A stretch of DNA of 64,000 bases from an uncultured Actinomycetes bacterium. Its GTDB lineage: Bacteria; Actinomycetota; Thermoleophilia; RBG-16-64-13. This document shows positions 8,666 to 40,400 of this stretch, in pieces. Below the pieces are notes generated by a model. It saw only the letters and a program-made list of their open reading frames with translations, had not been told where the DNA came from and searched no databases. Position numbers and translations under genes: made by a program. Location of the stretch: assembly GCA_963713545.1 (NCBI GenBank), contig CAVQME010000001.1:24540-88539 (forward strand), read 5' to 3'. Positions within the stretch are counted from its first letter, which is position 1. Each line of letters starts with the position of its first letter.

Positions 8666-8708
8666 CGAGGGCGCTGGCACACCAAGACTGGTGCAGCCAG
8701 CGCCCTCG
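8666..8708 (-). terminator. Strong GC-rich hairpin downstream of ccdA (candidate terminator or RNA structure)
   Basis: CGAGGGCGCTGGCACACC, then loop AAGACT, then GGTGCAGCCAGCGCCCTCG. This gives an ~18-bp stem with a small bulge. There is no clear U-tract. Confidence 0.4.
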
Positions 8709-8907
8709 CGCCCCCCCGGCGGACTGAAAGGAGGGCGTCGCAGCTGATCACGCTGCGACCCCAACCCAGTCGCTCCTGGGACGGTGAACGGGACCTTCGA
8801 GTTCCGCAACAGATGAGTCGATGGCCGGGCGCAATCCCGAGCCCGCGCGCTGGTTTCGACGGCACACGATGAGACCCCATTCTGACGATGGACCTCGTCA
8901 TTCGGGC

Positions 8908-9630
8908 TCAGAAGAACGGCAACCCCAGGCCCGACAGCCGCGCCGAAAGCCAGCTGAACTGCCCTCCGATCAGGAGAGCTCCGTAGATCACCAAGATCGC
9001 CCCACACACTATCTGGATGACCCGCAGATGTCTCCGTATCCGGGAGAACGCTCGAAGCGCCCGGCCCACGAAGAAGCCTGCCAGCAAGAACGGTATGCCT
9101 AGCCCCAGAGAATAGACGAACAGCAGCGCGGCCCCTCCCGCCGGGTCGCCACCGGACGCGGCCATGGTCAGTATCGCAGCCAGAACGGGGCCGACGCAGG
9201 GCGTCCACCCGAAGGCGAAGGCGATCCCCATGACGAAGGCTCCCGTGGGCCCCCTCGGTACCTTGCCGAGGAGAGGACGCACGTCTTTCTGCATGAAGCT
9301 GGGCGCCGTCAGACCGGCGATGATCAGACCCAGGACGACCAGGAGCGCGCCCGCGATGATCTGCAGCAGCCTCTGATTGGCCACGAGCACGCCCGCGAAC
9401 GAGAAACCGGCTCCCAGCAAGGTGAATACCACGGAGAAACCGAGCACGAAGGCAAGCGTGCTCAGGATGACGCGCCGGTCCCCCTCCCGCAGTTCCTCGA
9501 CACTCAGGCCGGAGACGAACGAGAGGTAGGCCGGAAGGAGGGGAAGGACGCAAGGGCTGAGGAAGCTGGCCGCCCCGCCCGCCAACGCCACGAGGAAGGC
9601 GGTCAAACCGAGATCAGTCGGTAAGGTCAT
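8908..9630 (-). CDS. ccdA: Cytochrome c biogenesis / thiol-disulfide electron transporter CcdA (DsbD family)
   Basis: 240-aa polytopic ORF with the N-terminal SPCVLPLLPAYLSF and a second TPCVGPVLAAIL motif, the two conserved Cys-containing half-sites. Confidence 0.9.
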   Translation of the reverse strand: MTLPTDLGLTAFLVALAGGAASFLSPCVLPLLPAYLSFVSGLSVEELREGDRRVILSTLAFVLGFSVVFTLLGAGFSFAGVLVANQRLLQIIAGALLVVLGLIIAGLTAPSFMQKDVRPLLGKVPRGPTGAFVMGIAFAFGWTPCVGPVLAAILTMAASGGDPAGGAALLFVYSLGLGIPFLLAGFFVGRALRAFSRIRRHLRVIQIVCGAILVIYGALLIGGQFSWLSARLSGLGLPFF

Positions 9631-10189
9631 CCACCAGGCTGGAAAGCTCGTCGGCAGTCATGCCGCCGACCACGGTCTTCGCCACCTCTCCCTCAGAATC
9701 GAGGACCACTATGGTGGGGATCGCCCGCACCCCATAGTCCGCAGCGACGTTGTCTTCATCGAGCATCACGGGAAACGTGTACCCGCCCTCGCTCATGAAC
9801 TCGCGCATGTCGTCCTCGCCGTCGCTCACCGCTAGGACCAACACTCCCGCTCTTTCCGCTTCTTCTCGATAGAACCTATCGAGTTCGGGCGCCTCCGCCT
9901 CGCAGGCCCCTCACCAGCTGGCCATGAAGGCCAGCACCAGGGGCTTGCCCCGGTATTGGCCGAGCGAGACCTCCGTCCCATCGAGCGTTACGCCGGAGAA
10001 ACCGGCGTCGGCTTGGGCAGTCGTCGCGGTCGCGCCGCCCGTCGAGGAGGTGGCGGGAGATCCGCAAGCCACGGAGAGGACCGCGATGAGAGCGACCAGG
10101 AACGCCGCCATCCCCGCGGTGATAGCCAGAGAACTGCGCCTGCCCCGCACCGGTCTCACAGCATCGGATCTCACAGCGTTGGATCTCAC
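9614..10189 (-). CDS. TlpA/ResA-like thiol:disulfide oxidoreductase lipoprotein with in-frame TGA at the active site (candidate selenoprotein, W-U-G-A-C)
   Basis: Track ORFs 9911-10189 and 9614-9844 are in the same frame; the 66-nt gap is 22 codons. The joined product reads ...GKPLVLAFMASW[TGA]GACEAEAPELDRFY...VRAIPTIVVLD.... This is the thioredoxin-fold FWASWCGPC context with TGA (9913-9911) replacing the first Cys. The N-terminal signal ends in VAC, a lipobox-like sequence. Confidence 0.7.
9865..9883 (-). other. Candidate bacterial SECIS-like hairpin downstream of the ResA-like UGA
   Basis: On the mRNA: CUCGAUAG-GUU-CUAUCGAG, a perfect 8-bp stem with a G/U apical loop. It starts 27 nt after the UGA. 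An alternative bulged GC helix lies immediately after the UGA. Confidence 0.4.
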
Positions 10190-10204
10190 AGCGTCACCCG
10201 ACCG

Positions 10205-11014
10205 TCACCGGGCCTTGCGCCCCGTCGAAGCGGTAGCGGCCACCGGAGGGACGCTCTCCTCGCCGCCCAATACCGGGCGAAGTCGTCCGTAGGTCTCGAA
10301 GTACCACATCCCGACGATGCCGATGACGAAAAGCGCCACGGCGATCCACTGCTGCTGGGTGAGCCCCAGGAAGACCGCCTCGTTGGTGCGCACGAACTCC
10401 ACCAGGAAGCGCTCGATCCCGGCGAGCATCAGATACGCGAAGATCAAGGGACCTTCGCGCTTGAAACGGGGACTGATGACCCACACGAGCAAGGCAAAGA
10501 TCACCAGTGAGGCCGCAATCTCGTAGAGCTGGGTCGGATGCACCTTCACGGTCGTAGGCGGGAGACCTTGGGGAAAGGACATTCCCCAAGGGAGATCGGT
10601 GGGCACGCCGTAATCGTCGCCCCTGAGAAAGCAGCCCATCCGGCCCACCGCGTAGCCTACGGCTACCGCCGGACCACCCGAGTCCATGACGGCCGCGAGC
10701 CGCTCTTTCGAAAGCAGCGTGACCACGACCACGGCCACGATGGCGCCGAAAAGCCCGCCGAACCAGACCAGGCCCCCTCCGCTGAGGAGGTTGCCCGGCC
10801 ATTCGTCGGGATGGAGGATCAAATAGTGGATCTTGGCCCCGAGCAGACCGCCCACCACACAGGCGATGAGGAGCCCGTAGATGAAATCGGGCTTGACGCC
10901 TCGCTGTTTGAACTGCCAATGCGCGACGAAACCGGCGGAGATGAACGCGAGAGCCATCATGACCCCGAAGGAGTTCATCGTGAACCCGCCGATATGAAAC
11001 AGCTCAGGGTACAT
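10205..11014 (-). CDS. lgt: Prolipoprotein diacylglyceryl transferase
   Basis: 269-aa ORF. The N-terminus MYPELFHIGGFTMNSFGVMMALAF and the polytopic profile are typical of Lgt. Confidence 0.95.
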   Translation of the reverse strand: MYPELFHIGGFTMNSFGVMMALAFISAGFVAHWQFKQRGVKPDFIYGLLIACVVGGLLGAKIHYLILHPDEWPGNLLSGGGLVWFGGLFGAIVAVVVVTLLSKERLAAVMDSGGPAVAVGYAVGRMGCFLRGDDYGVPTDLPWGMSFPQGLPPTTVKVHPTQLYEIAASLVIFALLVWVISPRFKREGPLIFAYLMLAGIERFLVEFVRTNEAVFLGLTQQQWIAVALFVIGIVGMWYFETYGRLRPVLGGEESVPPVAATASTGRKAR

Positions 11015-11133
11015 TCAGCTCCCCAGGGTAAACGTCATGGCGCGAGAGACCTCGGCTTCAGCGTGCCGATTATCGCACGCCGGTCATCGGTCGCGCGCTG
11101 TTCGCTGGGACCACACGGGTCCCATCAAGACGC

Positions 11134-11367
11134 TCAGCTGAAGCCCGACCGAGGCGTGCAACTACTCTGAGGCACGCATCTGCCGGTGTCCACGCACGAC
11201 GGAGAAGAAGGTCCAAAGCCGAGCACACCGCCGAACCCGGTGAAACGCTGTTCCACTTCGCGGCCGCCACAATCAGGGCACACCTTAGCTTCCTCCTTGA
11301 GAAAGCCGAGGACGAACACCTCGAACTCGTTGCCGCACGAGCGGCACTTCAGATCATAGGAAGCCAT
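11134..11367 (-). CDS. FmdB-family zinc-ribbon protein
   Basis: MASYDLKCRSCGNEFEVFV...VCPDCGG is the CxxC...CxxC zinc-ribbon signature. I prefer the internal ATG at 11367 over the track start at 11436. Confidence 0.75.
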   Translation of the reverse strand: MASYDLKCRSCGNEFEVFVLGFLKEEAKVCPDCGGREVEQRFTGFGGVLGFGPSSPSCVDTGRCVPQSSCTPRSGFS

Positions 11368-11723
11368 CAGCCACCGTCTCCCTCGTCGCCGGCGAAGGGC
11401 GCAACGCCCATGTCGGCAAGCTGGTCTTCGACCCAATACATACTGATCGAGGCCGGAGTCTTGATCTCGTCTCCCACTAGTACCAGCGGGGCTCCGTGGC
11501 CTTCGGCCACCGCTCCGGCCAATACCGGGAAGTCGACGAGATCGGGATCCTCCACATCGACGTAGCGCAGGGGCCCGTCGTTCCCCATCCTGGCGCCCAG
11601 ATCCCGGTTCAGATAACCGACTATCTCCTCCAGAGATAGAGCAGGACGTCAGCCACCGCCTCTCCGCAGGGCATCCATGCGTCTCGAGCCCATCAACACC
11701 AGGTGGGCCGTGGAATCACTCAT
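11367..11723 (-). CDS. ArsD/YuzD-like thioredoxin-fold protein with in-frame TGA (candidate selenoprotein)
   Basis: The track ORF (11367-11588) holds only the C-terminal half (RYVDVEDP...APLVLVGDEIKTP...). The same frame continues upstream through TGA at 11651-11649 to ATG at 11723. It reads MSDSTAHLVLMGSRRMDALRRGGG[TGA]RPALSLEEIVGYLNRDLGARMGNDG. From memory of YuzD (CASC...) and ArsD (GVCG) sequences, the TGA sits where their active Cys lies. Total 118 codons. It starts 37 nt after the trxA stop. Confidence 0.5.
11621..11639 (-). other. Candidate bacterial SECIS-like hairpin downstream of the ArsD/YuzD-like UGA
   Basis: On the mRNA: CUAUCUC-UGGAG-GAGAUAG, a 7-bp perfect stem with a GG-containing loop. 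It starts 9 nt after the UGA, close to the spacing I recall for the E. coli fdhF SECIS. Confidence 0.4.
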
Positions 11724-11760
11724 AGAATCGCTTCTCACTTTCACCACTCGAGCTCGCGGC

Positions 11761-12087
11761 CTAGGCCAGCCCGAACTCCTTCTCGTAGTCTTTCTGGCTG
11801 CGGGCGCCGATCAGCTGGGTCTTCAACTGCCCGCCGTCGAACAAGATGACCGTGGGTATGCTCATGATCCCGTAGCGCGCCGCCAGCTCTTGGTTGCTGT
11901 CGACGTTGACCTTGAGCACCGTCACCTTCTCGGGGTGATCGGAAGCCAGCTTCTCCAAGACCGGACCCACCATGCGGCAGGGACCGCACCAGGGCGCCCA
12001 GAAATCCACCACCACAGGCACGGTGGACGTAGATACGACATCGTCGAACTGCTTGACGTCCACTTCCTGCACGCTGCCATCACTCAT
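11761..12087 (-). CDS. trxA: Thioredoxin
   Basis: VVVDFWAPWCGPCRMVGPVLE is the canonical WCGPC site. I prefer ATG at 12087, preceded by AAGGAG, over the track start at 12198. Confidence 0.93.
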   Translation of the reverse strand: MSDGSVQEVDVKQFDDVVSTSTVPVVVDFWAPWCGPCRMVGPVLEKLASDHPEKVTVLKVNVDSNQELAARYGIMSIPTVILFDGGQLKTQLIGARSQKDYEKEFGLA

Positions 12088-12201
12088 CTCAATCTCCTTG
12101 CTGTTGTGGGCCGGCCCACCGACCCCCCGTAGTATATGGTATCCGACCGGGCGGCCCGACCACCTGCTGCCCTCGACCGCCGGATCCTTCTTGAGCACCT
12201 G

Positions 12202-12225
12202 TAATATACCCAGTGGGGTATATTA
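12202..12225. promoter_or_regulatory. AT-rich perfect palindrome in the divergent trxA / MBL-hydrolase promoter region (candidate operator or paired -10 elements)
   Basis: TAATATACCC-AGTG-GGGTATATTA gives 10-bp perfect arms. Each strand presents TATATT. Confidence 0.45.
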
Positions 12226-12400
12226 GCACACATGCCGATCCGGTGGCACTTGAAGGGACCGAGCGCAGAGGCACCGCCCCGGGCCGCATCTCGTCCAGGT
12301 TGTTACCCGGTACCCCCATCCGCTAACCTATCTGCCGACGTTGGAGAACCTATCGGTGGATTGACGGCGGATGTCACAGCAGCGAGCGGAGGCGATCGCC

Positions 12401-13239: not shown

Positions 13240-16155
13240 ATGAGGGAGGGCAGTAGTCATCTCGCCTGAAAAAGAACCACCGGCAGACGGATCGTCGGCA
13301 AAGGCATCGTCGGCAAAGGCCAAGAAGCCTGCCAAGCCTGATAGGCTCCAGCGGATCCTACGCCTCAAACCGGGACCGCTGCGTCGTTTCGTCCTCGTCG
13401 TCGTCATCCTCGCCGTCGTCCTCTTGGTCTTCGGCTTCATCTCCCGCTTCTGGACGGAGTATCTCTGGTTCGACGAGGTGGGGTACACCACGGTGTTCTG
13501 GACGCCGATCGTGGCCAAGGTGTGCGTGGGGCTGTTCTTCGCCGTCATCTTCTTCGGGATCTTCTACGGCAGCCTCTGGCTCGCTCGTAAGATCTCCCCC
13601 GGCTACTAGCCGTGCCCGGAGCCGAAGACGGAGAGATCATCGACCTGGCCGAGCGCCGACGCTGGCCGGGACGGCTGATGCTGATCGTCTCCATCGTCAT
13701 AGCCGTCATCGTCGGCGTCATCTACAGCGGTAGTTGGGAGACGGTGCTCCTGTTCCTCAATCAGGGAGATTTCGGCTATGCCGAACCCCTCTTCGACAAG
13801 GACGCCTCCTTCTTCGTGTTCACCCTGCCCGTGTGGAATATGCTGGTGAACTTCGCCGCGGTCGTCCTACTGTTCACGTTCATCGCCACCGCCTTCACCT
13901 ACGTGGTGGACCGGGCCATGGTGGTGAACGCCCAGAACAAGATCCGGTTGGCTCCGCACGTCAAGGCGCATCTCTCGGTGATCCTGGCCTTGGCCATGGT
14001 GGCCAAAGCAGGAGACTACATGCTGCAGACGTGGGCTCTCGACTACTCCGAGCGAGGGGCGACCTTTGGTGCCAGCTACACGGACGTGAACGCCTCCCTC
14101 CCGGTGCTTCACTTCCTCGCCATCGTGTCCCTGGTCGCCGCCGCCATCTTCTTGGCGAATATCCGCTATAAGGGCTGGAGACTGCCCGCTATCGCAATCA
14201 TCATCATGTTCCTGACCTGGGCGATAGCCGGCAAGGCCTACCCCGCCATCATCCAGCAGTACAGAGTGTCCCCGAACGAGATCGCAGCTGAGACGCCGTA
14301 CATCGCCAACAACATCGAAGCTACCCGCTGGGCCTTCGGGTTGGACGAGGTCACGAAAGTATCTTCCGCCGCCACCACCGACCTGACCGCCGACGACGTG
14401 CGGGCGAACGCCGGTACGATCTCCAACATACGCCTTTGGGAGCCCCGCCCGGCTCTCGACACCTACTCCCAGATCCAGGAGATCCGCCTCTACTACTCTT
14501 TCGTCGATGTCGACGTGGATCGCTACGTCATCGACGGGCAGTACCGCCAAGTGCTGGTGAGCGGACGAGAGCTCGACCAGACCCAGCTCCAAGAGCAATC
14601 CCAGACCTGGGTCAACACGCACTTGAGCTACACCCACGGCTACGGGATGGTGATGAGCCCGGTGAACGAGGCCGGAGGCGACGGGCTCCCTATCCTTCTG
14701 ATAAGCGACATCCCGCCCAAGACCGACACCGACCTGAAGATCACGCGTCCCGAGATCTACTACGGGGAACTCGGCAACGACTTCGTAGTGGTTAAGACCA
14801 CGAGCCCGGAATTCGACTATCCCCAGGGCGATACCAACGTCTCCGCCACCTACCAGGGCCAAGGGGGCGTACCGGTGGGCAGCAAGGTGCGGCAGGCCGC
14901 CTTCGCCTTCCGGTTCGGAGACGCGAAACTGTTCTTCTCGAGCTCCTACACCGAGGAGTCCCGGGTCATGTACCGCCGGACCATCGCGGAGAGGGTGCAG
15001 GCGCTCGCTCCCTTCCTTCAGTACGACAAGGACCCGTATCTGGTGCTCCGGGACGATGGCTCGCTGGTGTGGATGTGGGATGCGTACACCTCCACCGACC
15101 GGTTCCCCTACTCGCAGCCTCGGGCCGATGGGACGAACTACGTGCGCAACCCTATCAAAGTTGTCATCAATGCCTATGACGGCAGTGTCACCTTCTACCA
15201 GATAGACCCCGAAGATCCCCTGGCGAACGCCTGGGGCAAGGTATTCGAAGGGCTGTTCACCCCGGGCGACCAGATGCCGGACGACATCCGCCGGCACATG
15301 CGCTATCCCGAGGACCTGTACAGCGTCCAGGCTGAAGCGCTGACCATCTATCACATGACGGACCCGCAGATCTTCTACAACAAAGAAGACGCCTGGGAGA
15401 TCCCGACGGAGGTCTACGGAACCGAGCAGATCCCGGTCGTGCCCTACTACGAGACATTGGCGTTGCCCGGTTCCACGGATCCGGAATTCGCCCTGCTGCT
15501 GCCGTTCTCCCCGCTGGGCAAGGACAACATGGCCTCTCAGTTGGTAGCGCTTCAGGATGGCGATAACTACGGCAAGCTCGTCTTGATCGACTATCCCAAG
15601 GACAAGCTGGTCTTCGGCCCGGCTCAGGTGGAGGCCCGGATCTCCAACGACCCCGAGATCTCGGCACAGATAACGCTCTGGAGCCAGTCCGGCAGCCAGG
15701 TGATACGCGGCAACCTGCTCGTGATTCCGGTGAACCAGTCGGTCATGTACTTCGAGCCCCTCTACCTGCAGGCTCAGCAGAGTCCCATCCCTGAGCTGAC
15801 AAGGGTGATCGCCAGCTACGGGGACGACGTGGTCATGAAACCGACCTTGGGCGAGGCTCTGGAGGCGATCTTCGGAGAGCCGGTCGGACCCGGGTCGTCC
15901 ACCACGACGACGGGCGGCGGCACCACCACTACGGCGCCGGGCGGCACGACAACGACCACCGGCAGCAGCACGACCACCACGGTCCCGGGCGGCACGACTA
16001 CCACTCTGTCGAGCGACCAGGCCAGGTTGATCGCGCAGGCCAATCAGTACTACCAGGCGGCCCTCGAAGCCCAGCGGCGAGGAGACTGGGCCGAGTACGG
16101 GCTTCAGATCGAGGCGCTGGGAGCGGTGCTGGAGGCACTCGCGGCGCTGGAATAG
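13240..16155 (+). pseudogene. UPF0182-family membrane protein, frame-disrupted as sequenced
   Basis: The N-terminal piece (track 13424-13609) carries the family motif YLWFDEVGYTTVFW and ends ...LARKISPGY-TAG. The remainder (13612-16155) is in the -1 frame, and that frame is open from 13591. A one-base shift at the C5 run 13596-13600 gives ...LARKISPRLLAVPGAEDGE.... The N-terminal frame is open back to 13244 with no ATG, GTG or TTG. ATG at 13240, preceded by GGGAG, would join if one base were removed in GGGAGGG. The C-terminal linker is Thr/Gly-rich. Confidence 0.8.
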
Positions 16156-19964: not shown

Positions 19965-21410
19965 ATGGGAGCGCCTTCACTGCGACAGCTGAGCGACGTC
20001 CTCTGGGAGCTGCCGGTCGAGGGCGGCATGCGTGTCCCCGGCCGTATCTACGCCGACCGTGAACTGGTGGCAGCGTTGCGAGAAGACCAGAGCCTGGTAC
20101 AGGTCAGCAACGTCGCTCATCTTCCCGGGATCCTGTGTTGGTCGCTGGCCATGCCGGATATCCACTACGGCTACGGCTTTCCCATCGGAGGCGTAGCCGC
20201 CTTTGCCGTCGATGAGGGAGTGGTGTCGCCCGGTGGAGTGGGATACGACATCAACTGCGGTTGCAGGCTTCTGGCGACCGACCTGGACTCGGCGGACATC
20301 CGAGACAAGGTGCCACGGATGGTGGACCAGCTCTTCCGGGATGTACCCTCCGGCGTCGGCTCCAGCGGGGCCATAGCCAAGCTTTCTCGTACGGAGCTAG
20401 AGAAAGTGCTTGTCAAGGGGGCCGCCTGGGCAGTGGAGCGAGGCTACGGTTCTCCCGAGGACCTGGCGCACACGGAGGACCGCGGCGCCCTGCCGGGTGC
20501 CGACCCGGCCGCGGTCAGCGAAAGAGCCTACGCCCGCGGACAGGATCAAGTGGGGACGCTGGGGTCGGGCAACCACTTCCTGGAGATCCAGGTGGTGGAA
20601 GAGGTCTTCGACAGCGAGGCCGCGCAAGCCTACGGCCTGCGCCCCGGCCAGGTCACGGTCATGGTCCACTGCGGGTCGCGCGGCCTGGGGTACCAAGTGT
20701 GCGAGGACTACCTGAGCGTGATGGCGGCCGCCACCTCCCGCTACCACCTGCAACTTCCAGACCGGCAACTCTCTTGTGCGCCGGTCGGCTCCGCGGAGGG
20801 CAAGAGATACCTCGCAGCCATGGCGTGCGCCGCCAATTATGCCTGGGCGAACCGCCAGATGATCATGCACCTCACCGAACAGGCACTCCTCCGTGCGCTT
20901 CACATTTCTCCAAAGGAACTCAACCTGCGTCTGGTCTACGACGTGGCGCACAACATCGCCAAGTTGGAGACGCATGAGGTAGCCGGAGCCTCAGTGGAGA
21001 CCTGCGTGCATCGGAAGGGAGCCACCCGAGCGTTCGGACCCGGCCGGGCCGAGGTGCCGGACGACTACCAGGCAGTGGGACAGCCTGTGCTCATCCCCGG
21101 CGATATGGGCACGGCGTCTTTCGTGTGCAAAGGCACCGAGGAGGCCATGAGACGGAGCTTCGGCTCCACGTGCCACGGGGCCGGGCGGGTGATGAGCAGA
21201 ACCCAGGCCCTGAAGCGGGCCAAGGGTAGATCGATAGCCGCGGAACTGGCCAAGGACGGCGTGTTCGTGCGGTCGCAGGGACCGAGGACTCTGGGCGAGG
21301 AGATGCCGGAAGCTTACAAGGACGTGGAGCGAGTGGTGGCTGTGATGGACCGGGCGGGGATATCTCCGCGAGTGGCGCGATTGCGCCCCCTCGGAGTGGT
21401 CAAAGGGTAA
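19965..21410 (+). CDS. rtcB: RNA-splicing ligase RtcB
   Basis: 481-aa ORF with MPDIHYGYGFPIGGVAA, GYDINCG and GSGNHFLEIQ motifs and an HNIA region. Confidence 0.97.
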   Translation: MGAPSLRQLSDVLWELPVEGGMRVPGRIYADRELVAALREDQSLVQVSNVAHLPGILCWSLAMPDIHYGYGFPIGGVAAFAVDEGVVSPGGVGYDINCGCRLLATDLDSADIRDKVPRMVDQLFRDVPSGVGSSGAIAKLSRTELEKVLVKGAAWAVERGYGSPEDLAHTEDRGALPGADPAAVSERAYARGQDQVGTLGSGNHFLEIQVVEEVFDSEAAQAYGLRPGQVTVMVHCGSRGLGYQVCEDYLSVMAAATSRYHLQLPDRQLSCAPVGSAEGKRYLAAMACAANYAWANRQMIMHLTEQALLRALHISPKELNLRLVYDVAHNIAKLETHEVAGASVETCVHRKGATRAFGPGRAEVPDDYQAVGQPVLIPGDMGTASFVCKGTEEAMRRSFGSTCHGAGRVMSRTQALKRAKGRSIAAELAKDGVFVRSQGPRTLGEEMPEAYKDVERVVAVMDRAGISPRVARLRPLGVVKG

Positions 21411-31157: not shown

Positions 31158-31796
31158 CTACCTCCCGTGGTAGTGGATGAGAAGAAGCACGCCCTCGCCG
31201 TGCGTCACTCGGGCTGTTTCTCCGGTCATCGCATTGCTGACCCCTCTCGTGGCCGACTGGGAGAGCGGTCCGTAGACAAGCGGATAGAGCAGACCCTCTG
31301 TCCAAACGTCCTCCACCCGCGGCGTCAGCGGCAGCAGCGAGACTGTGTCGCCGCGCTCCCCGCTGAAAGTGCTGTCACCTTTGACCAGGAAGGCCTCGTG
31401 CCAGTCGTCCACCATGCGCACACGTGCGGCTGCCAACCACGGAGACGACAGAAGCAGGAGATTCCCCACCAAGTGATCCAAGCGGGGGCCGCCCAGTGCG
31501 CCATAGACCGTGATGTCATCCGCGCCCCGCTCCATCACCAGGCGTAGCGCCGCTTCGGTGTCGGTCTCGTCTTTGGCCGTGGGGAGCAACACCACTTCCA
31601 CCCCCTGGGCCTCGAGAGCCTCGCGAGTACGGATGGTAATGGAGTCGAGGTCACCCACCAACAACCCCGGTACCAGGCCGACCCGGGCCAATGTTTCCGC
31701 TCCCCCGTCGACCGCCACAAGGAGGTCGGCCGAGGCCAGAGTGGCAGCATCCAGTTGTGCGGTCAGACTGGAACCTGCGACCACGGCGACATGCAT
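31158..31796 (-). CDS. thiN: Thiamine pyrophosphokinase
   Basis: VAVDGGA...GDLDSI...KDETDTEAAL...GALGGPRLDHLVGN are TPK catalytic and thiamine-binding domain motifs. Confidence 0.88.
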   Translation of the reverse strand: MHVAVVAGSSLTAQLDAATLASADLLVAVDGGAETLARVGLVPGLLVGDLDSITIRTREALEAQGVEVVLLPTAKDETDTEAALRLVMERGADDITVYGALGGPRLDHLVGNLLLLSSPWLAAARVRMVDDWHEAFLVKGDSTFSGERGDTVSLLPLTPRVEDVWTEGLLYPLVYGPLSQSATRGVSNAMTGETARVTHGEGVLLLIHYHGR

Positions 31797-31889
31797 GGCA
31801 GACTCCCGCGTCGGGCATCGGGGAGCGGAGCGTTCTCTAGCGGAAAGACGCCGGCGCCTCTAGAAGGCGAACGGGCTAATGTGGATAAC

Positions 31890-31978
31890 CGTTACTTCCC
31901 TTCGCTGGCATTACCCAGATCAGGTTCGCAGGGTCTGTGGCAGAGCCACACTCTCAGCTACAACGCTCCCCTAGCAAG
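31890..31978 (-). promoter_or_regulatory. TPP (THI-box) riboswitch
   Basis: The minus strand reads GGGGAGCGUUGUAGCUGAGAGUGUGGCUCUGCCACAGACCCUGCGAACCUGAUCUGGGUAAUGCCAGCGAAGGGAAG. It contains the conserved CUGAGA and ACCUGAUCUGG-UAAUGCCAGCG elements. It lies upstream of the thiN/ykoFED-like operon. Confidence 0.92.
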
Positions 31979-32471
31979 GTATATAGAATGCTCATGGATT
32001 ATAGCATCGTGGGACATGAACTGCCCCAAACGGCAACGCTGCGCGAGCGGCACTTGTGTATAATCAAGCCGTTTGTGCCGGTTGCCCGAGCACGGCGACG
32101 TCTCTTCGACGCATCCTTCCTCAGTAGGTGGTATAGACTGCCGAGAACACGAGCGTTGCGGTCAGACGGTGCGATCTCCACTCGCACCCGAGTACCTCTT
32201 CCGGCGCCGATCACAGTGAGCTCGCCCGAGCGTTTTGGGCTGAGCTGGATGGGGGGTTGGTGAACACGCAAACACTGGCCGTCGAACGGCCGGTCCCGGG
32301 GCTGAACAAGCCACCGGCGGTTTGTGCTGGTCACTTTTCCCTCCCCTGTCTTGCCGGACGTTCCACCGGCACCGTTCACGCAGAGACGCCAAGCGACGCA
32401 GGTCCGGTCAACGGGACCATCATCCAGCACACATCCGTCGAGCGGCGCCAAACGACTCCGGGGAAGGGGTG

Positions 32472-33086
32472 ATGGTGTCTACAACCACGGACGACCGCAA
32501 GGCAAGCCCTACCGAACACGGTCTCACCGAGATCCGCTGGCACGCCAGAGGCGGCCAAGGAGCGGTGACCGCAGCCAAGATGGTGGCCGAACTGGCCCTC
32601 GGCCAGGGCAAGCACTTCCAGGCCTTCCCCGAGTACGGGCCCGAGCGCTCGGGAGCCCCCATCGTCGCCTTCACGCGGGTGAGCGACGAGCCCATCCAGC
32701 TCTACTGCGGTGTCGAGCATCCGGGCATCGTGGTGGTGCTCGATCCGTCGTTGCTCGGCACGATAGACGTCACCAAGGGCGCCCCTGACGACGCGATCCT
32801 GCTTGTCAACAGCGAGATGACGCCGGCCGAGCTGCGGAGGCACTACAAGCTCACGGGCGGGCGTCTCTTCACCATCGAGGCCACCCGGATAGCCAACGAG
32901 ACGATCCGCCGGCCCATCCCGAACACGCCCATGGTCGGCGCTCTCACCCGGATAACCGGACTCTTTCCGATCGACAAGGTGGTCGAATTCCTGCGCGTTG
33001 ATTTCGGCAAGAAGTTCCCTCCCAAGGTGGTGGAGGGCAATATCTCCGCCATCACGCGAGCCTACGAGGAGGTCAAGGGCGAATGA
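32472..33086 (+). CDS. porG: 2-oxoacid (pyruvate):ferredoxin oxidoreductase, gamma subunit
   Basis: ATG at 32472 follows GGGGAAGGGG. EIRWHARGGQGAVTAAKMVAELA...FPEYGPERSGAPIVAFTR is the typical PorG pattern. Confidence 0.92.
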   Translation: MVSTTTDDRKASPTEHGLTEIRWHARGGQGAVTAAKMVAELALGQGKHFQAFPEYGPERSGAPIVAFTRVSDEPIQLYCGVEHPGIVVVLDPSLLGTIDVTKGAPDDAILLVNSEMTPAELRRHYKLTGGRLFTIEATRIANETIRRPIPNTPMVGALTRITGLFPIDKVVEFLRVDFGKKFPPKVVEGNISAITRAYEEVKGE

Positions 33087-33406
33087 GCCCCGCGAAGAAG
33101 CCCCAGTGGGATGTCAGCGACATCGACACTTGGGGGCCCGACAAGCACGAGCTCGGAGCGACCATCCCCGTGTCGGGGAACTCCGAGGAGGTCGAGACCG
33201 GCGGCTGGCGCTCGATGGTGCCGGTCATAGATTCCGAGGCCTGCAGCGGCTGCATGCTCTGCTACTTCTACTGCCCCGACGCCTCGATCATTATCGAGGA
33301 CGGTAAAGCAGTGGGTATCGACCTCAAGCACTGCAAGGGTTGTGGCATCTGCGCCAAGGAATGCCCGGCCGACGCGATAGTCATGAAGAACGACGAGAAG
33401 GAGTGA
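33083..33406 (+). CDS. porD: 2-oxoacid:ferredoxin oxidoreductase, delta subunit (2x[4Fe-4S])
   Basis: CSGCMLCYFYCP and CKGCGICAKECP motifs. ATGA overlap with porG. Confidence 0.92.
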   Translation: MSPAKKPQWDVSDIDTWGPDKHELGATIPVSGNSEEVETGGWRSMVPVIDSEACSGCMLCYFYCPDASIIIEDGKAVGIDLKHCKGCGICAKECPADAIVMKNDEKE

Positions 33407-33410
33407 CGAG

Positions 33411-34613
33411 GTGGGCGGAGACAGCACCGGCACGCTCGCCGTCACCGGCAACGAAGCGGTAGCGGAAGCGATGCGCCAGATCAACCCGGACGTGGTGTGC
33501 GCCTATCCCATCACTCCCCAGACCGAGGTCGTGCAGCTCTACGCGCAGATGGTGGCCGACGGTAAGGTGACCTCCGAGTTCGTCACGGTGGAGTCGGAGC
33601 ATTCGGCCATGAGCGCCGTGATCGGCTCCGAAGCCGCCGGCGCACGGACGATGACGGCCACCTCCTCGCAGGGCTTCGCCCTGATGTGGGAGCTCCTCTT
33701 CGTGGCCTCGAGCTACCGGCTGCCGATCGTGATGACCACGGTAAACCGTGCGCTCAGCGGGCCCATCAATATCCACTGCGACCACAGCGACACCATGGGG
33801 GGCCGGGACTCGGGCTGGATCCAGCTCTACGGCGAGGACCACCAGCAGGCCTACGACAATTGCATCCAGGCCATCCGTATTGCCGAGCATATGGACGTGC
33901 GCACGCCGGCGATGCACATGTACGACGGCTACGTCATCAGTGGCGCTATCGGCCCCCTGGTGATGTTGCCGGACGAGCAGGTCCAGGACTTCATCGGCCC
34001 GTTCCGATCTGTCAACCCACTCCTTGACGCCAAGCACCCCGTCACCGTAGGTCCTTTCGACGGTTTGCACGGCTGGTACTTCGAGCACAAGGTCTCGCAG
34101 AATCGAGCGATGGACCGAGCTCTGAAGGTGATCCAAGACGTCGCAGACGAGTACGCGGAGTTGAGCGGACGGCACTACAGCCTCCTCGATCCCTACCGCC
34201 TGGAAGACGCCGAGATAGCCATAGTCGTTGTCGGCTCCACGGCCGGGACCACACGCATGATCGTGGACAAGCTCCGCGCCAAGGGCGTCCGGGCCGGGAT
34301 GATACGGGTGCGCGTGTTCCGTCCGTTCCCGGACGCGGCCTACGCAAAGGCCCTCGAGCACGTGAAAGTGGTCGGCGTCATGGATCGGGCCGATTCCTTC
34401 GGCGCTCAGGGAGGCCCACTGTTTCTCGAGATCCGCGCGGCCTTGTACGACAACGAACCGCGTCCCCAGGTGCTGCCGTTCATCTACGGCCTCGGCGGGC
34501 GCGATATCTTCCCCGACAACATCGAGCACGCCTTCTCCGTCCTGGAGGAGGCGGCCCATAGCAGGCAGCGAGCGTCCACCGAGCGCCGCTATCTGAACCT
34601 GCGCGAAGACTGA
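33411..34613 (+). CDS. porA: 2-oxoacid:ferredoxin oxidoreductase, alpha subunit
   Basis: 400-aa ORF. TGNEAVAEAMRQINPDVVCAYPITPQTEVV is the PorA N-terminus. GTG start follows AAGGAG. Confidence 0.95.
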   Translation: MGGDSTGTLAVTGNEAVAEAMRQINPDVVCAYPITPQTEVVQLYAQMVADGKVTSEFVTVESEHSAMSAVIGSEAAGARTMTATSSQGFALMWELLFVASSYRLPIVMTTVNRALSGPINIHCDHSDTMGGRDSGWIQLYGEDHQQAYDNCIQAIRIAEHMDVRTPAMHMYDGYVISGAIGPLVMLPDEQVQDFIGPFRSVNPLLDAKHPVTVGPFDGLHGWYFEHKVSQNRAMDRALKVIQDVADEYAELSGRHYSLLDPYRLEDAEIAIVVVGSTAGTTRMIVDKLRAKGVRAGMIRVRVFRPFPDAAYAKALEHVKVVGVMDRADSFGAQGGPLFLEIRAALYDNEPRPQVLPFIYGLGGRDIFPDNIEHAFSVLEEAAHSRQRASTERRYLNLRED

Positions 34614-34623
34614 GGGAGCCGGC

Positions 34624-35436
34624 ATGGCACGCGACAACGGTCACAAAGATAAGGGATCGGCGCTGTACGAGGTCCTGCAAGGGATCGACTTCGAGCGCCG
34701 GCAATTGGTCGGCAAGAAAGCGGGCACCGGTCTCTTCGACCTGGCCCGGGATGAGAATGGCGGCTACCGCTGCTACGCCTGCACGCTCTGCGAACGGACC
34801 TGCCCGGTGGACTGCATCGAACTCGAATACTGCCCTGATTTCCCGGAAGAGCCGTTCGATCTCGAAGCCGCGCGAGCCGCGGCCCTGACCACCCTTCCCG
34901 GGGAGAGTTGCGGCGCGGCTTCGGCCTGCGTCATGGGCGAGACACCGGCCGGTTTCATACCCGAGATCGACATGAAGCACTTCGATCCGGTGATCGCCGG
35001 CATCCGCTCGGGATCGGGACTGGTGGAAGCCCTGCACGCCACCCAGGAAGCCTACGGCTATCTGCCCCGTGTGGCCCTCGAAGCCATCGCGGACGAGATG
35101 CACCTGCCCTTCTCGCGGGTCTACGGCGTCGCCAGCTTCTACAGCCAGTTCCGGCTCCGACCGGTGGGCAAGTACGTCATCGACGTCTGTATGGGCACCG
35201 CCTGCCACGTGGCCGGCGCCCCGCTGGTGGCGGAGGCGTTCAGCCAGGAGCTCGAGATCCCTCTGGGGGGGACTACTCCCGACGGTCTCTTCACCCTGCA
35301 GACGGTGAACTGCGTCGGTGCCTGTGCCCTCGCCCCGGTGGTGCGCATCGGGAACGACGAGACGTTCGGCCGTATGGGACCCAATGAGGCCAGGCGATTG
35401 GTACGCAGGTTGCGTAAAGCGGAGGTGCGGGCATGA
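34624..35436 (+). CDS. NuoE/HydC-type [2Fe-2S] subunit with N-terminal ferredoxin-like extension
   Basis: The C-terminal two thirds form the NuoE fold: LHATQEAYGYLP...DVCMGTACHVAG...NCVGACALAPVV. The ~110-aa N-terminal extension carries CYACTLCERTCP plus further Cys residues. Confidence 0.9.
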   Translation: MARDNGHKDKGSALYEVLQGIDFERRQLVGKKAGTGLFDLARDENGGYRCYACTLCERTCPVDCIELEYCPDFPEEPFDLEAARAAALTTLPGESCGAASACVMGETPAGFIPEIDMKHFDPVIAGIRSGSGLVEALHATQEAYGYLPRVALEAIADEMHLPFSRVYGVASFYSQFRLRPVGKYVIDVCMGTACHVAGAPLVAEAFSQELEIPLGGTTPDGLFTLQTVNCVGACALAPVVRIGNDETFGRMGPNEARRLVRRLRKAEVRA

Positions 35437-37421
35437 GCGCCGGTGGGACCGTGCGCGCCGGCGGCGCCTCGAACGGCGCCGGCCGCAAGGCCGCCCGCGC
35501 AGCGGCTGCGGCGGTGCAGGCCCGGGCCGATAGGATCGACGCGGCGCTGAAGGCCGCCGCCGATCCGAACGCCTACCTGGCCGAGGACGGCAACACGGAG
35601 ATAAGGGTCTGCGCCGGTACCGCCTGCCATGCTTCCGGCCGGGTGGCCCTGCGCAAGGCACTCGAGAAGGCGTTGGCCGAGCGCGGCCTCGGCGACAAGG
35701 TGACCATCGTCGAGACCGGCTGCCATGGGTTCTGCGAGCAGGGCCCCATCATCGTGCTTCGGCCACAGGGCATCTTCTACCCCCGTCTGGAGCCGAAAGA
35801 CGTGGAGGAGCTCATCGAGACGAGCGTGGTGGGAGACGGAGTGGTGGAACGGCTTCTCTACCAGCACCCGCGGTCGGGCGAACCCCTCGCGCTCGAGAAG
35901 GACATCCCGTTCTACTCTTTGCAGAGGCGTATCGTGCTGAGCCTCAACGGCAAGATCGACCCTTTCTCCCTGGACGACTACCTTGCCCATGGCGGCTACT
36001 CGGCGCTCGCCAAGGTGCTCAAACCCGCCGACCCGGTGGCGATCATCGACGAGATCGAGAGGAGCGGCCTGCGCGGCCGCGGGGGGGCCGGATTCCCGAC
36101 GGCTCGCAAATGGCGGAGCTGCCGCGCCAACCCCGGCGAGAAGCACTACATCATCTGCAACGCCGATGAGGGAGACCCCGGCGCCTTCATGGACCGCTCG
36201 GTGCTCGAAGGCAACCCTCACAGCGTGATAGAGGGAATGCTCATAGCCGCCTACGCGATCGGGTGCGACAACGGCCCGGTGGAAGGCTACGTGTACGTCC
36301 GTCACGAGTACCCCTTCGCTGTGGAGCGGCTTCGTTGGGCGCTGGAGCAGGCCCGTAACAGGAACCTACTCGGTGAGGACATCCTGGGTTCAGGCTTCTC
36401 CTTCGACATACGGATAAACCAGGGGGCGGGCGCTTTCGTCTGCGGCGAGTCCACGGCCCTCACCGCTTCCATCGAGGGGTTGCGGGGGATGCCGAGAGGT
36501 AAGCATATCCGCACCGTGTCCCACGGCCTCTGGAGCCAGCCTACCAACCTCAACAACGTCGAGACCTACGCCAACGTGCCCTGGATCATGATTCACGGCG
36601 CCGACGCGTTCGCTTCGCTGGGCACCGACACCAGCAAAGGAACCAAGATCTTCTCGCTCACGGGCAAGGTCGTCAACGGCGGTCTCATAGAGGTGCCGAT
36701 GGGCGCCACCTTGCGCGAGGTGATCTTCGATATCGGGGGCGGGATGCTGCCCGGCCGTCACTTCAAGGCCGTGCAACTGGGTGGACCGTCGGGGGGCTGT
36801 TTGCCCGCGTCTCTTCTCGACGAGCCCATCGATTTCGAGAGTCTGCTCGCGGCCGGCTCCATGATGGGTTCCGGCGGCATGGTGGTGGTCGACGACAGCA
36901 CGTGCATGGTCGACTTCGCCAAGTTCTTCCTGAAGTTCACGGCCGAGGAGAGCTGCGGGAAATGCGTGCCCTGCCGCGTCGGCGCCACCCGCATGCTCGA
37001 GATCCTGGAGCGCATCTCGGCCGGCCGCGCGACAGCGGCCGACGTGGATGCGCTCGAAATGTTGGCCGAGGACGTCGTGGAAGGCTCGCTCTGCGCCCTG
37101 GGCGGGAGCGCACCCAACCCGGTGCTGTCCACGCTCCGTTACTTCAGGGACGAGGTGATGGCCCACGCCGAGGAGCACCGTTGCCCGGCTAGGGTCTGCC
37201 GTCCTCTCATCCGCTACAAGATCGACAAAGACGCCTGCACCGGCTGCCGCGCCTGCCTCACCGCCTGCCCTACCGGCGCGGTGACCGGGGAGCGGAAAGA
37301 GGTCCACGTCATCGACCAAAAGCTCTGCATCAAGTGCGATGCCTGCCGGCAGGCGTGCCGGTTCGACGCGGTCCGCGTGGAGGCGGGCGCGCGTTCGCTG
37401 GCCGAAGGGAGGGTAAGGTGA
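35433..37421 (+). CDS. NuoF/HydB-type FMN- and NAD(H)-binding subunit with flanking FeS domains
   Basis: N-terminal thioredoxin-like [2Fe-2S] (RVCAGTACHASG...GCHGFCEQGP). NuoF core (GLRGRGGAGFPTARKW, CNADEGDPGAFMDR). ESCGKCVPCRVG cluster. C-terminal CTGCRACLTACP and CIKCDACRQAC. ATGA overlap with the upstream gene. Confidence 0.93.
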   Translation: MSAGGTVRAGGASNGAGRKAARAAAAAVQARADRIDAALKAAADPNAYLAEDGNTEIRVCAGTACHASGRVALRKALEKALAERGLGDKVTIVETGCHGFCEQGPIIVLRPQGIFYPRLEPKDVEELIETSVVGDGVVERLLYQHPRSGEPLALEKDIPFYSLQRRIVLSLNGKIDPFSLDDYLAHGGYSALAKVLKPADPVAIIDEIERSGLRGRGGAGFPTARKWRSCRANPGEKHYIICNADEGDPGAFMDRSVLEGNPHSVIEGMLIAAYAIGCDNGPVEGYVYVRHEYPFAVERLRWALEQARNRNLLGEDILGSGFSFDIRINQGAGAFVCGESTALTASIEGLRGMPRGKHIRTVSHGLWSQPTNLNNVETYANVPWIMIHGADAFASLGTDTSKGTKIFSLTGKVVNGGLIEVPMGATLREVIFDIGGGMLPGRHFKAVQLGGPSGGCLPASLLDEPIDFESLLAAGSMMGSGGMVVVDDSTCMVDFAKFFLKFTAEESCGKCVPCRVGATRMLEILERISAGRATAADVDALEMLAEDVVEGSLCALGGSAPNPVLSTLRYFRDEVMAHAEEHRCPARVCRPLIRYKIDKDACTGCRACLTACPTGAVTGERKEVHVIDQKLCIKCDACRQACRFDAVRVEAGARSLAEGRVR

Positions 37422-40400
37422 GCACACGAACCAAGACCGCCCTGAAGCTCACGATCGACGGTAGGGTGGTGAAAGCGCAGCAGGGCGAGACCGTTCTGGA
37501 CGTCGCCCGCCGGGAAGGCATCGACATACCGGCGCTGTGCCACATACCCGGCACCCCGGCCTGGGGCGCTTGTCGGCTGTGCCTGGTTGAAGTGGAGGGA
37601 CTCGACAAGCTCCAGGCCGCCTGCACCACCTGGGTGGAAGAAGACATGGTGGTGAAGACCGACACCCCGCGGGTGCGGGCGAGGCGGACGAGCTACCTCA
37701 AGATGTACCTCTCAGATCACAATGCCTATTGCGAGGCGCCCTGCACGCACGCCTGTCCCACCCACATCGACATTCCGGCGTATCTGGCTGCCCTGGCCGC
37801 CGGCGACGCCCCGGGAGCGGCCGCTCTGGTGCGCGAAGAACTTCCGTTCCCCGGCATCCTGGGACGGGTCTGCCCGCGCTATTGCGAGCCGGTCTGCAGA
37901 CGAGGCCAGATCGACGAACCGATCGCCATCTGCGCCCTTCATCGAGCCGCCGCCGACCATTCGCCGGGCGCGCGCCTCGCGTCGGGTGCGACCAGCGGCA
38001 AGCGGGTGGCCGTCATAGGCGCCGGTCCAGCCGGTCTCGCCGCCGCTTGGTTCCTCGTCGATCGCGGACATCGGGTCACCCTGTACGACATGAACGAGAA
38101 GCCCGGAGGAGCCCTCCGGTACACTATCCCCGAATTCCGCTTGCCGGAGAAGGTGCTCGACAAGGAGCTACAGCCCTTGTGGGATGCGGGCGTGCGCTTT
38201 GTGGGCGGGTCGAAGCTCGGCTATGAGGTCGATCCCGATGGATTGTTCGATGCCGGGTTCGACGCGGTCGTCATAAGCGTGGGCGGCATGGAGAGGCCCG
38301 CGCCCACCCTCCCCGGCGGCGAAGCCGCCCTCGATGGCCTCGAGCTGCTAAGAAGAGTCCGCGAAGGCCACCCCGTGCGCTTCACCGGCCAGACGGTGGT
38401 CGTAGGTGACGGGCCCACGGCTTTCGACGCCGCCCGCACCTCGTTGCGGCTAGGCGCCGCGGAGGTGGTGGTCATCGCCAAGCACGAAGAGAACGCCATC
38501 CCCGCCGGGAGACAGGATCTGGCCGCCGCTCTGGAAGAGGGCGTCAGGATCGAGTTCGGCGCGTCGGCCAAGCGCGTGAAGACAGCCGCCGGGAAGGTGA
38601 AGGGCGTCTCTTGCGCCCGTCTCGCTTGGGACGGGGATACGGCCCGGGAGATCGAAGATTCCGACTTCGAGGTGGCGGGAGCCACAGTGGTGCTGGCGGA
38701 TGACGAAGCACCGCCGGCCTCCGCCAAGGGGCGTCTGCAGGCCCATCCCTTCACCGGACGGACGTCTCGCGAGGGTGTCTTCGCAGCCGGCGACGCGGTC
38801 GCCGGGGCGGAGTCGGTGATCCACGCCGTGGCCGGCGGCAAACGCGCCGCCTTGGCCGTCGACGCCTGGTTACGCGGACACGACTTGGCGGCCCTGGAGG
38901 AACGACTGGAGGCGTTCAGCCGCTCGCCCTATCTGGACCAGCTCGAGGAGGCCTCCGAGATCGGCGACGTCGGCCGGCGCTTGACCGAAAGAAGCCCGGT
39001 CTGGCTCAAGATGGGCGCCACCGCGGAACCCGCGGCCCGCGCCTCCATGCCCAGGGCCGGCAAGGCCAAGCGCTTGTCCGGTGTGGAGGTGGAAGTCGAG
39101 AAGGGCTTCAGCCTTGCCACCGCTCGGGCCGAGGCCAAGCGCTGCCTGCAGTGCGTGTGTCCCACCCTTGGCGAATGCGATCTGCAACGGTTGGGAGTGC
39201 AGTACGAGATCACTGCCAACGAACTGGTCACCGAGGGCGGCAGGGTGCGGGTGGTCCAGCCCCAGCACGAGCATCCCTTCATCCGGCGCGACATGGACCG
39301 TTGCGTCGCTTGCGGGCGTTGCGTGCGGGTGTGCCGCGACGTGGCCGGTCCCGCCTGCTACGACTTCACCGGCCGAGGCTTCGCCATCAACGTCGACACC
39401 CCCTATGCCGAAGCCCTGCAGCTGGCCGACTGCATCTCCTGCGGTCGTTGCGTGTCCACCTGTCCTACCGGGGCACTCACCTTCAACGAGCGCCGGCTGA
39501 GTTCCTTCCGGGTCGACGAGAGCCGCTGCATCATGTGCCGGGAGTGCGTGGAGGTCTGCCCGGTGGATGCCATACAGGAGACCAACCACTTCGAGGACGC
39601 CCGCCGCAAGTGGCTCGAACTGGTGGCCAAGGGCAGCCAGCTTGCCGGCGGGCACCGCATGTGCGCCGGATGTGGCGCGCCCATCGTCGTCAGACAGGTC
39701 CTCATGGGCACCAGCGATCCGGTGGTGGTCAGCGCGGCCACGGGCTGTCTCGAGGTGAGTACCTCGATCTACCCGTACACTTCTTGGAAGGGTAGTTTCA
39801 TCCACACCGCTTTCGAGAACTCCGCGGCTACCCTGAGCGGGGTCGAGACCGCTTTCAAAGCGCTCAAGAAGAAGGGACTCATCGACGAGAACGTCAAGTT
39901 CATCGCCTTCGGCGGCGACGGCGGCACCTACGACATCGGGCTGCAGTCGCTCTCCGGCGCAATGGAACGCGGGCACCGGATGCTGTATGTCTGCTACGAC
40001 AACGGCGCCTACATGAACACCGGCTTCCAGCGCTCCGGGGCAACCCCGACATGTGCCTGGACGACCACCAGCCCGGTTGGCGAGGAGTCGGCCGGCAAGT
40101 TGCAGCAACGCAAGAACCTCACCGAGATAATGATCGCTCACGGTCTCGAGTATGTGGCCCAGGCCTCACCGCACGATCCGCGGGACTTGGTGCGCAAAGC
40201 GGCGAAGGCGCTGGCAGTAGACGGTCCCACCTTCCTCAACATCCTCGCTCCTTGCCCACGCGGGTGGCGCTCGGATGGGGCCGAGAGCATCGACCTGGCT
40301 CGGGAGGCCGTCAACACCTGCTACTGGCCGCTGTTCGAGTGCGTGGAAGGAGAGTACCGGCTCACCTACCGGCCCCACTACAAGCTGCCGCTCGTACCCT

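Follow-up and report, generated by a model that had tools for sequence, protein, structure and literature searches.

Replacement of cysteine by selenocysteine (Sec, U) is well established in thioredoxin-fold proteins, and TlpA-like selenoproteins with a UxxC active site are a known predicted class, described in 2005/2006 and again in a 2026 review (PMC1088965, PMC1794560, PMC13188914). Members of this class have been described from Deltaproteobacteria (Geobacter, Syntrophus) and marine metagenomes. Here, we describe a gene of similar design in a 64,000-nucleotide (nt) stretch of contig CAVQME010000001.1 from an uncultured Actinomycetes bacterium (the whole stretch is referred to below as the window), in which an in-frame UGA very probably encodes Sec at the active site of a TlpA/ResA-like thiol:disulfide oxidoreductase. 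An initial annotation, made from the sequence alone, had proposed this reading and had rightly drawn on the precedent of Sec-for-Cys replacement in this fold. As in the described class, the predicted product is an extracytoplasmic thioredoxin-fold oxidoreductase with Sec as the first residue of UxxC and with widespread Cys homologues, and a predicted Sec insertion sequence (SECIS) hairpin whose loop begins with G lies inside the coding sequence; this likeness is to published descriptions rather than to exemplar sequences, and identity as one family is unproven. What is new is the lineage, namely uncultured, apparently anaerobic Thermoleophilia-like Actinomycetota (the genomes are labelled Thermoleophilia or Gaiellales), together with a conserved trx-lgt-tlpA-ccdA setting and a near-invariant 19-nt SECIS of its own.

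Two further groups invite comparison. The Cys-containing proteins ResA, StoA, TlpA and CcmG, which are fed by CcdA or DsbD, share with the present gene the W-C-x-x-C arrangement, a Glu at position +6, the cis-Pro, an N-terminal anchor and an adjacent ccdA. In contrast, the nucleophilic Cys is here replaced by Sec, and the scores fall far under the equivalog cut-offs: the NCBIfam model for ResA proper (NF002854) gave 86.4 bits against a cut-off of 170, and that for StoA (NF041202) gave 72.7 bits against 210. Judged by these scores, the selenoprotein is not an equivalog of either. A ResA-like selenoprotein family, NF041054, also combines a ResA-like fold with Sec in the active-site region, but its motif is WAxxUGC, which puts Sec at a different position from the W-U-x-x-C found here (ASW-U-GAC), and its protein is about twice as long. 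The gene scored 40.1 bits against the cut-off of 300 for that model and, on this measure, is not a member.

A thioredoxin-fold gene with one internal TGA

The gene (coordinates of all features are given in Table 1) is a single minus-strand frame of ~191 codons, one Sec codon included. Its sole internal stop is the TGA, around which the frame reads ...GKPLVLAFMASW(stop)GACEAEAPELDRFYREE... when translated. The product is laid out as VRSNAV...LAITAGMAAFLVALIAVLSVACGS...GFSGVTLDGTEVSLGQYRGKPLVLAFMASW(stop)GACEAEAPELDRFYREEAERAGVLVLAV...IPTIVVLDSEGEVAKTVVGGMTADELSSLVDDLTD(stop), and the residues spanning the UGA are ...PLVLAFMASW-U-GACEAEAPELDR. The initial annotation had taken the two open reading frames (ORFs) on either side of the TGA to be one thioredoxin-fold gene in one frame, and both the translation and the Pfam matches agree with it.

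Domain and structure searches were run on the joined protein with Cys placed at the TGA. Pfam returned Redoxin at 80.6 bits (cut-off 26.6), AhpC-TSA at 77.6 (26), Thioredoxin_8 at 41.8 (27) and Thioredoxin_2 at 41.3 (27), and the best matches among solved structures were ResA (4nmu, E = 1.2e-17) and StoA (3erw, E = 7e-16). In ResA and StoA, the residue opposite the TGA is the first Cys of W-C-x-x-C, and the alignment with Cys orthologues gives the same placement, as the initial annotation had it. In the structure alignment, ResA and StoA read wC..CekEmP where the present protein reads wU..CeaEaP, and ..lPT.. where it reads ..IPT..; the Glu at +6 (the position of ResA Glu80) and the cis-Pro loop of ResA are kept, and these positions are conserved among family members.

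Table 1. Features of the selenoprotein locus in the window, with the evidence for each.
Feature	Coordinates	Strand	Evidence
Complete selenoprotein gene: TlpA/ResA-like thioredoxin-fold thiol:disulfide oxidoreductase with lipoprotein-type signal peptide	9614..10189	minus	Frame, Pfam, ResA/StoA structures, orthologues
In-frame UGA, predicted Sec codon; N-terminal nucleophilic site of U-x-x-C (W-U-G-A-C)	9911..9913	minus	Invariant in 63 sequences
Resolving Cys codon of UxxC	9902..9904	minus	Invariant Cys; TGC/TGT synonymous variation in orthologues
SECIS core: 8-bp stem, GUU apical loop, CUCGAUAG-GUU-CUAUCGAG; predicted SelB-binding hairpin	9865..9883	minus	Fold, pairing, synonymous constraint
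Spacer hairpin ("hairpin 1"): 4-6 bp, GAGG or GAAG-type loop, between UGA and SECIS core	9886..9901	minus	Weaker evidence
Cys closing the hydrophobic signal sequence (..AVLSVA-C-GS..), predicted lipidation site	10064..10066	minus	[GA]-C in orthologues
ccdA: DsbD_TM family membrane electron transporter, predicted reductant supplier	8908..9630	minus	Pfam DsbD_TM, 76 bits
lgt: prolipoprotein diacylglyceryl transferase, directly upstream	10205..11014	minus	Pfam LGT, 181.6 bits, full length

Orthologues with TGA and with Cys

A collection of 5.8 billion proteins was searched with the selenoprotein sequence, and sampling was extended by protein-based scans of species-representative genomes and metagenomes and by two DNA-pattern scans, the second of which fixed only the UGA context and a GGTTCTA core (the loop and three adjacent stem bases). 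In all, 63 distinct sequences share the in-frame TGA, 62 of them besides the window. They come from independent metagenome contigs and from about 35 species-level metagenome-assembled genomes (MAGs) whose titles name Thermoleophilia, Gaiellales, Actinomycetes or Actinomycetota, and which include RBG_16_64_13, anaerobic-digester, AnMBR and Microflora Danica bins. Recurrence in independent assemblies excludes, as far as sequence data can, a sequencing error at the TGA codon. The residue pair between U and C varies freely among these sequences (GA, GS, SA, PA, ST, SS, HS, SG, GV and SV, and further GT, PS, PT and others), and the TGA itself never varies.

Nearly all TGA forms with enough contig run about 96-99 codons beyond the TGA to a common C-terminus, and none of the orthologues truly ends at the TGA; the exceptions to the common C-terminus are L103, with a 282-codon extension, and L116, with a premature TAG. 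Over codons +16 to +98, pairwise differences per site amount to 0.34 at first, 0.27 at second and 0.55 at third codon positions. Because of this codon-position pattern, the common C-termini and the conserved ResA residues, the sequence downstream of the TGA bears the signature of translation.

Full-length Cys homologues in the protein collection carry WCGPC, WCGTC or WCGAC and are 45-54% identical over the alignment. We regard them as orthologues because they share the lgt-tlpA-ccdA arrangement, with trx upstream, and they have TGC or TGT exactly at the TGA site, so that the syntenic P0001-P0005, L052 and L068 read WCGxC where the window reads W-TGA-GAC. The lgt adjacency is conserved, and ccdA adjoins tlpA in many of the Sec and Cys loci alike. 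The same collection returned no full-length Sec form. Its close homologue P0016 is a public gene call of 118 residues that ends exactly at ...LAFMASW, and the contig behind it continues with the same TGA, then GSC...PELDRFYRE and an identical hairpin. A correct public annotation of the Sec form is therefore apparently lacking.

Several individual loci deserve separate mention. P0016 lies on an ENA contig of low coverage, in which (L001:~690-973) similarity to the family ends ~30 codons past the UGA and gives way to an ABC-permease-like stretch; this contig is probably chimeric. The sequence from L103:4049 onward (MAG SRP185410_co2_381) is a Sec-containing paralogue with the motif LWASW-U-PHC, and its frame runs on for 282 codons after the UGA, with a C-terminal extension that, by eye, may resemble S-layer homology repeats; the same MAG also holds a standard copy (L123). 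The TAG in L116 (L116:5472, minus strand) lies in frame 19 codons past the UGA, which may reflect either the decay of a paralogue or a fault of assembly. Three copies of the Sec form occur in one MAG (MFD01721.bin.2.195), L107 and L221 on CAWCLH010000020.1 together with L239, which by their sequences points to a paralogous expansion of the selenoprotein; L221 and L239 both carry the G-C compensatory hairpin variant described below.

A conserved hairpin downstream of the TGA

The initial annotation had noted a perfect 8-bp hairpin 27 nt past the TGA, and this hairpin is present as described; its loop is GUU and lies 35 nt from the UGA. The isolated hairpin has a folding energy of -8.4 kcal/mol (z = -3.6), which one of 200 shuffled sequences equalled. 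The published model of bacterial SECIS elements (bSECIS) gives an apical loop of 3-9 nt, an upper stem of 4-16 bp, a G within the first two loop positions that is usually followed by G or U, a spacing of 16-37 nt between UGA and loop, and a minimum free energy of at most -7.5 kcal/mol (PMC13188914). With a loop of 3 nt that starts with G-U, a stem of 8 bp and the distance and energy just given, the hairpin falls within all of these limits.

The hairpin also codes for protein (L-D-R-F-Y-R-E), and it does so with minority codons of this genome (AGG 10%, CGA 9%, TAT 25%, GAT 27%). Synonymous-codon diversity among the orthologues is ~0.5 gene-wide and drops to 0-0.11 at exactly +9 to +15 (E-L-D-R-F-Y-R). 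Across the 63 distinct sequences, 503 of the 504 stem cells are paired. Two pairs show compensatory changes, C-G to U-A (L067, L242) and A-U to G-C (L067, L221, L239), with the G-U intermediate of the latter preserved in L065, and wobble changes occur at three pairs; in L047, the closing pair opens to leave a 7-bp stem and a 5-nt loop. The protein-based sample of metagenomes carries no bias as to RNA, and all 32 of its TGA forms have the hairpin; the loosely specified DNA-pattern scan found the 8-bp stem in every family member and in none of about 25 chance hits.

The Sec forms (n=61) have a mean folding energy of -8.3 kcal/mol for the 19-mer (z = -4.75), versus about -1 kcal/mol (z about 0) for the Cys forms of the clade, and no hairpin is found in the Cys forms L052, L068, L035/L036 and L037 (0 to -0.4 kcal/mol). 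By these comparisons, selection acts on the hairpin, and it is confined to the UGA forms. One Cys orthologue, L034 (P0001; 759-820), keeps a relic with a single mismatch, CUGGAUAG-GUU-CUAUCGAG, at -5.0 kcal/mol. Zhang et al. 2006 (PMC1794560) described similar cases under the name "fossil SECIS", and the relic in L034, apparently another of this kind, suggests that Sec was recently converted to Cys in this sequence. An Rfam E-value search of 9600-10250 gave chance-level matches only, and the window holds no second copy of the hairpin within two mismatches.

Between the UGA and this hairpin lies a smaller one, the spacer hairpin, with 76.7% of its cells paired and double changes at four pairs; among them are G-C to A-U changes, and in one of these a Pro codon changes at its synonymous third position. 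Its mean z is -1.4 in Sec forms versus 0 in Cys forms, and hairpins like it are present in some Cys orthologues. The spacer hairpin is a probable, though unproven, lower part of the SECIS element. A long-range pairing of 9906..9902 (the xxC codons) with GCGGG at 9850..9846 was also considered; 91.6% of its cells are paired, its changes are one-sided and none of them is compensatory, and we rejected it.

The SECIS elements of E. coli fdhF and fdnG are likewise stem-loops within the coding sequence, 3' of the UGA, with G and U in the apical loop, and their lower region must melt as the ribosome nears (PMC13188914). In contrast, the loop here consists of just 3 nt and lies further from the UGA, no bulged U is evident, and the spacer contains a separate small hairpin.

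TGA usage and the search for decoding genes

As the initial annotation had pointed out, TGA is an ordinary stop codon in the window: it terminates 20 of the 45 annotated genes, lgt and ccdA included, and release factor 2 (prfB) is encoded there as well. Genome-wide reassignment of TGA is excluded by these two observations. A window scan for other genes with an in-frame TGA, based on GC content at third codon positions (GC3) and using thresholds that also missed the target gene, flagged only 19977 and 22412, both of which were judged to be ordinary stops with an antisense GC3 signal.

No tRNA-Sec was detected in the 64-kb window by ARAGORN or Rfam, and there are no sel genes among its about 50 genes annotated through Pfam and NCBIfam. 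E. coli SelA retrieved only enterobacterial matches from the protein collection. A search of protein representatives yielded 150 diverse SelAs, of which the named high-GC ones belong to Gemmatimonadota. A genome scan with a SelA alignment gave, among the matches listed, other phyla and one Coriobacteriia locus, and the SelA of that locus, used as a query in turn, returned only Coriobacteriia-type proteins. Nothing relevant was found in the literature on Sec in Thermoleophilia. We infer the presence of decoding machinery in the lineage from the selenoprotein gene itself.

Weighing of the alternatives

We favour Sec as the meaning of the UGA, with high confidence, because the TGA and the coding sequence downstream of it are conserved, because orthologues form a Cys/Sec pair, and because the hairpin shows structure, covariation and synonymous constraint; the interpretation offered in the initial annotation is supported on the same grounds. 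Several points weigh against it. The window yielded no selA, selB, selD or tRNA-Sec, and neither did about 1 Mb of sampled loci, which were searched by ARAGORN and by tblastn, the queries being SelA, SelB and SelD of E. coli and three SelAs from high-GC genomes. The 35-nt spacing is close to the upper limit of the bSECIS range and exceeds that of E. coli fdhF. Only a minority of stem positions vary, and the covariation consists of five double-change and five wobble cells. Finally, many of the genome loci came from a pattern that required the exact hairpin; the protein-based sample and the DNA-pattern scan with a mostly unspecified stem are largely free of this retrieval bias.

That no Sec machinery was found in these sequences would also suit a read-through that does not depend on a SECIS, in which a suppressor or near-cognate tRNA for Trp, Cys or Gly would decode the UGA, with the downstream hairpins as stimulus, and yield a selenium-free full-length protein, and downstream structures are generally known to stimulate stop read-through in some systems. 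We nevertheless regard this as improbable: the site is the catalytic Cys of CxxC, occupied by Cys in the orthologues, and Trp or Gly would abolish activity, while a Cys codon would be the simpler route to Cys, yet TGA is kept in more than 60 sequences. Moreover, the hairpin fits the SelB-type bSECIS model down to the G-U start of its loop, and TGA is an efficient normal stop in 20 of the 45 window genes, with release factor 2 encoded. Genuine termination at the TGA, which would leave a lipoprotein fragment of ~92 N-terminal amino acids and a remainder that is either untranslated or translated from an internal start (GTG at 9844), has in its favour that gene callers split the locus, that P0016 stops exactly at the Trp and that the ORF listing gives two ORFs. 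It is less likely still, for the eight codons that directly follow the TGA (x-x-C-x-x-E-x-P) show protein-level conservation along with synonymous TGC/TGT variation, yet termination would leave them untranslated. Neither fragment by itself is a thioredoxin fold; the cis-Pro loop would end up on another piece than the CxxC helix, or the active site would be lost. Furthermore, no conserved restart signal was seen, and the Cys orthologues are single genes. Least credible of all is that the gene is a pseudogene or that the TGA codon results from faulty sequencing or assembly. A probable frameshift elsewhere in the window (the UPF0182 gene described below, split at about 13610) means that assembly faults are possible, but identical TGA codons occur in 63 distinct sequences across samples, assemblers and sequencing technologies, the codon-position pattern is of the translated type on both sides of the TGA, and the hairpin is under selection.

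Gene neighbourhood and other observations in the window

The selenoprotein gene sits closely packed between its neighbours, with 15 nt separating the TGA stop of lgt from its ORF and 17 nt shared by its 3' end and the start of ccdA. A thioredoxin gene lies upstream (12198..11761), rpsF-ssb-rpsR-DUF2232-rplI-dnaB lie downstream, and a metallo-beta-lactamase-fold gene is also among the neighbours. Pfam and NCBIfam annotation of the neighbours revealed no genes for cytochrome c maturation, resB/resC included, adjacent to the selenoprotein gene. A scan of 8700-12400 for promoters and terminators found nothing beyond shuffle expectation, which is uninformative though compatible with an lgt-tlpA-ccdA operon.

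The start codon is the only uncertain coordinate of the gene, since its several in-frame GTGs, from 10189 to about 10150, sit within a 15-nt tandem repeat. This repeat (10154-10195, 2.8 copies, 88% matches) extends across the lgt-tlpA junction and the first selenoprotein codons and codes for A-V-R-S repeats; relatives such as L002 have fewer copies. The N-terminus that follows has a basic n-region, an h-region and then A-C-G-S. Because this signal layout is present and [GA]-C after the h-region recurs in about 65 of 67 orthologues, mostly as L-A-G-C, the product is most likely a lipoprotein.

Elsewhere in the window, two plus-strand ORFs in different frames (13244-13609 and 13612-16155) match positions 15-86 and 113-970 of PRK00068, so that the UPF0182 gene looks frameshifted or split, or else contains an assembly indel near 13610. 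At 19965-21410 (plus strand) lies an RtcB-family RNA ligase whose best NCBIfam match is "intein-containing RtcB", with only the extein parts matched, in two stretches. A thiamine pyrophosphate (TPP) riboswitch (31880-31982, minus strand, 70.6 bits) immediately precedes a thiamine diphosphokinase gene and two small genes that lack annotation (31158-31796, minus strand). The region 32322-40576 (plus strand) holds PorC-like, PorA-like, NuoE-like and NuoF-like genes and a fusion of 1080 amino acids that matches HoxU/NuoG-N, GltD-like and PorB models. By sequence, this region would encode an unusual fused pyruvate:ferredoxin oxidoreductase with electron-bifurcation-like modules, which fits an anaerobic lifestyle.

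Proposed function and significance

With the UGA read as Sec, the locus would encode, in one gene, a secreted and lipid-anchored TlpA/ResA-like thiol:disulfide reductase with a U-x-x-C active site, the UGA being recoded during translation by way of the SECIS inside the coding sequence. SelB would bind the SECIS hairpin, the ribosome would unwind the variable spacer hairpin on arrival, and Sec would then be inserted at the UGA. The product would be exported and then lipidated, lgt being the upstream gene. A co-transcribed CcdA may keep the selenol/thiol pair reduced with electrons taken from cytoplasmic thioredoxin, for which a trx gene is conserved nearby, and the selenoprotein would in turn reduce disulfides of extracytoplasmic client proteins.

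A more speculative extension, which we put forward tentatively and consider rather doubtful at present, is that the two hairpins make up a clade-specific bipartite SECIS, in which a near-invariant 19-nt SelB hairpin stands at the extreme of the distance range behind a co-varying spacer hairpin, and that this design belongs to a class-level anaerobic Thermoleophilia-like group.

General knowledge of selenoproteins is left unchanged by this gene. Its recognition corrects a conserved envelope redox gene that is otherwise mis-called as two fragments, in at least about 35 species-level MAGs, and it indicates the use of Sec in a poorly known anaerobic actinobacterial lineage. The compact 19-nt SECIS, with its natural compensatory variants, could serve as a search model for more selenoproteins in these genomes and as a test substrate for the SelB of high-GC Gram-positive bacteria. 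If the bipartite SECIS were real, the SelB of this lineage would have to recognise its target with unusual sequence specificity and the geometry at the ribosome entrance would be different, the Cys forms would be secondary reversions, as the fossil SECIS of L034 suggests, and an unannotated extracytoplasmic selenol reducing pathway, from CcdA to a Sec-containing TlpA lipoprotein, would be the default of this lineage.

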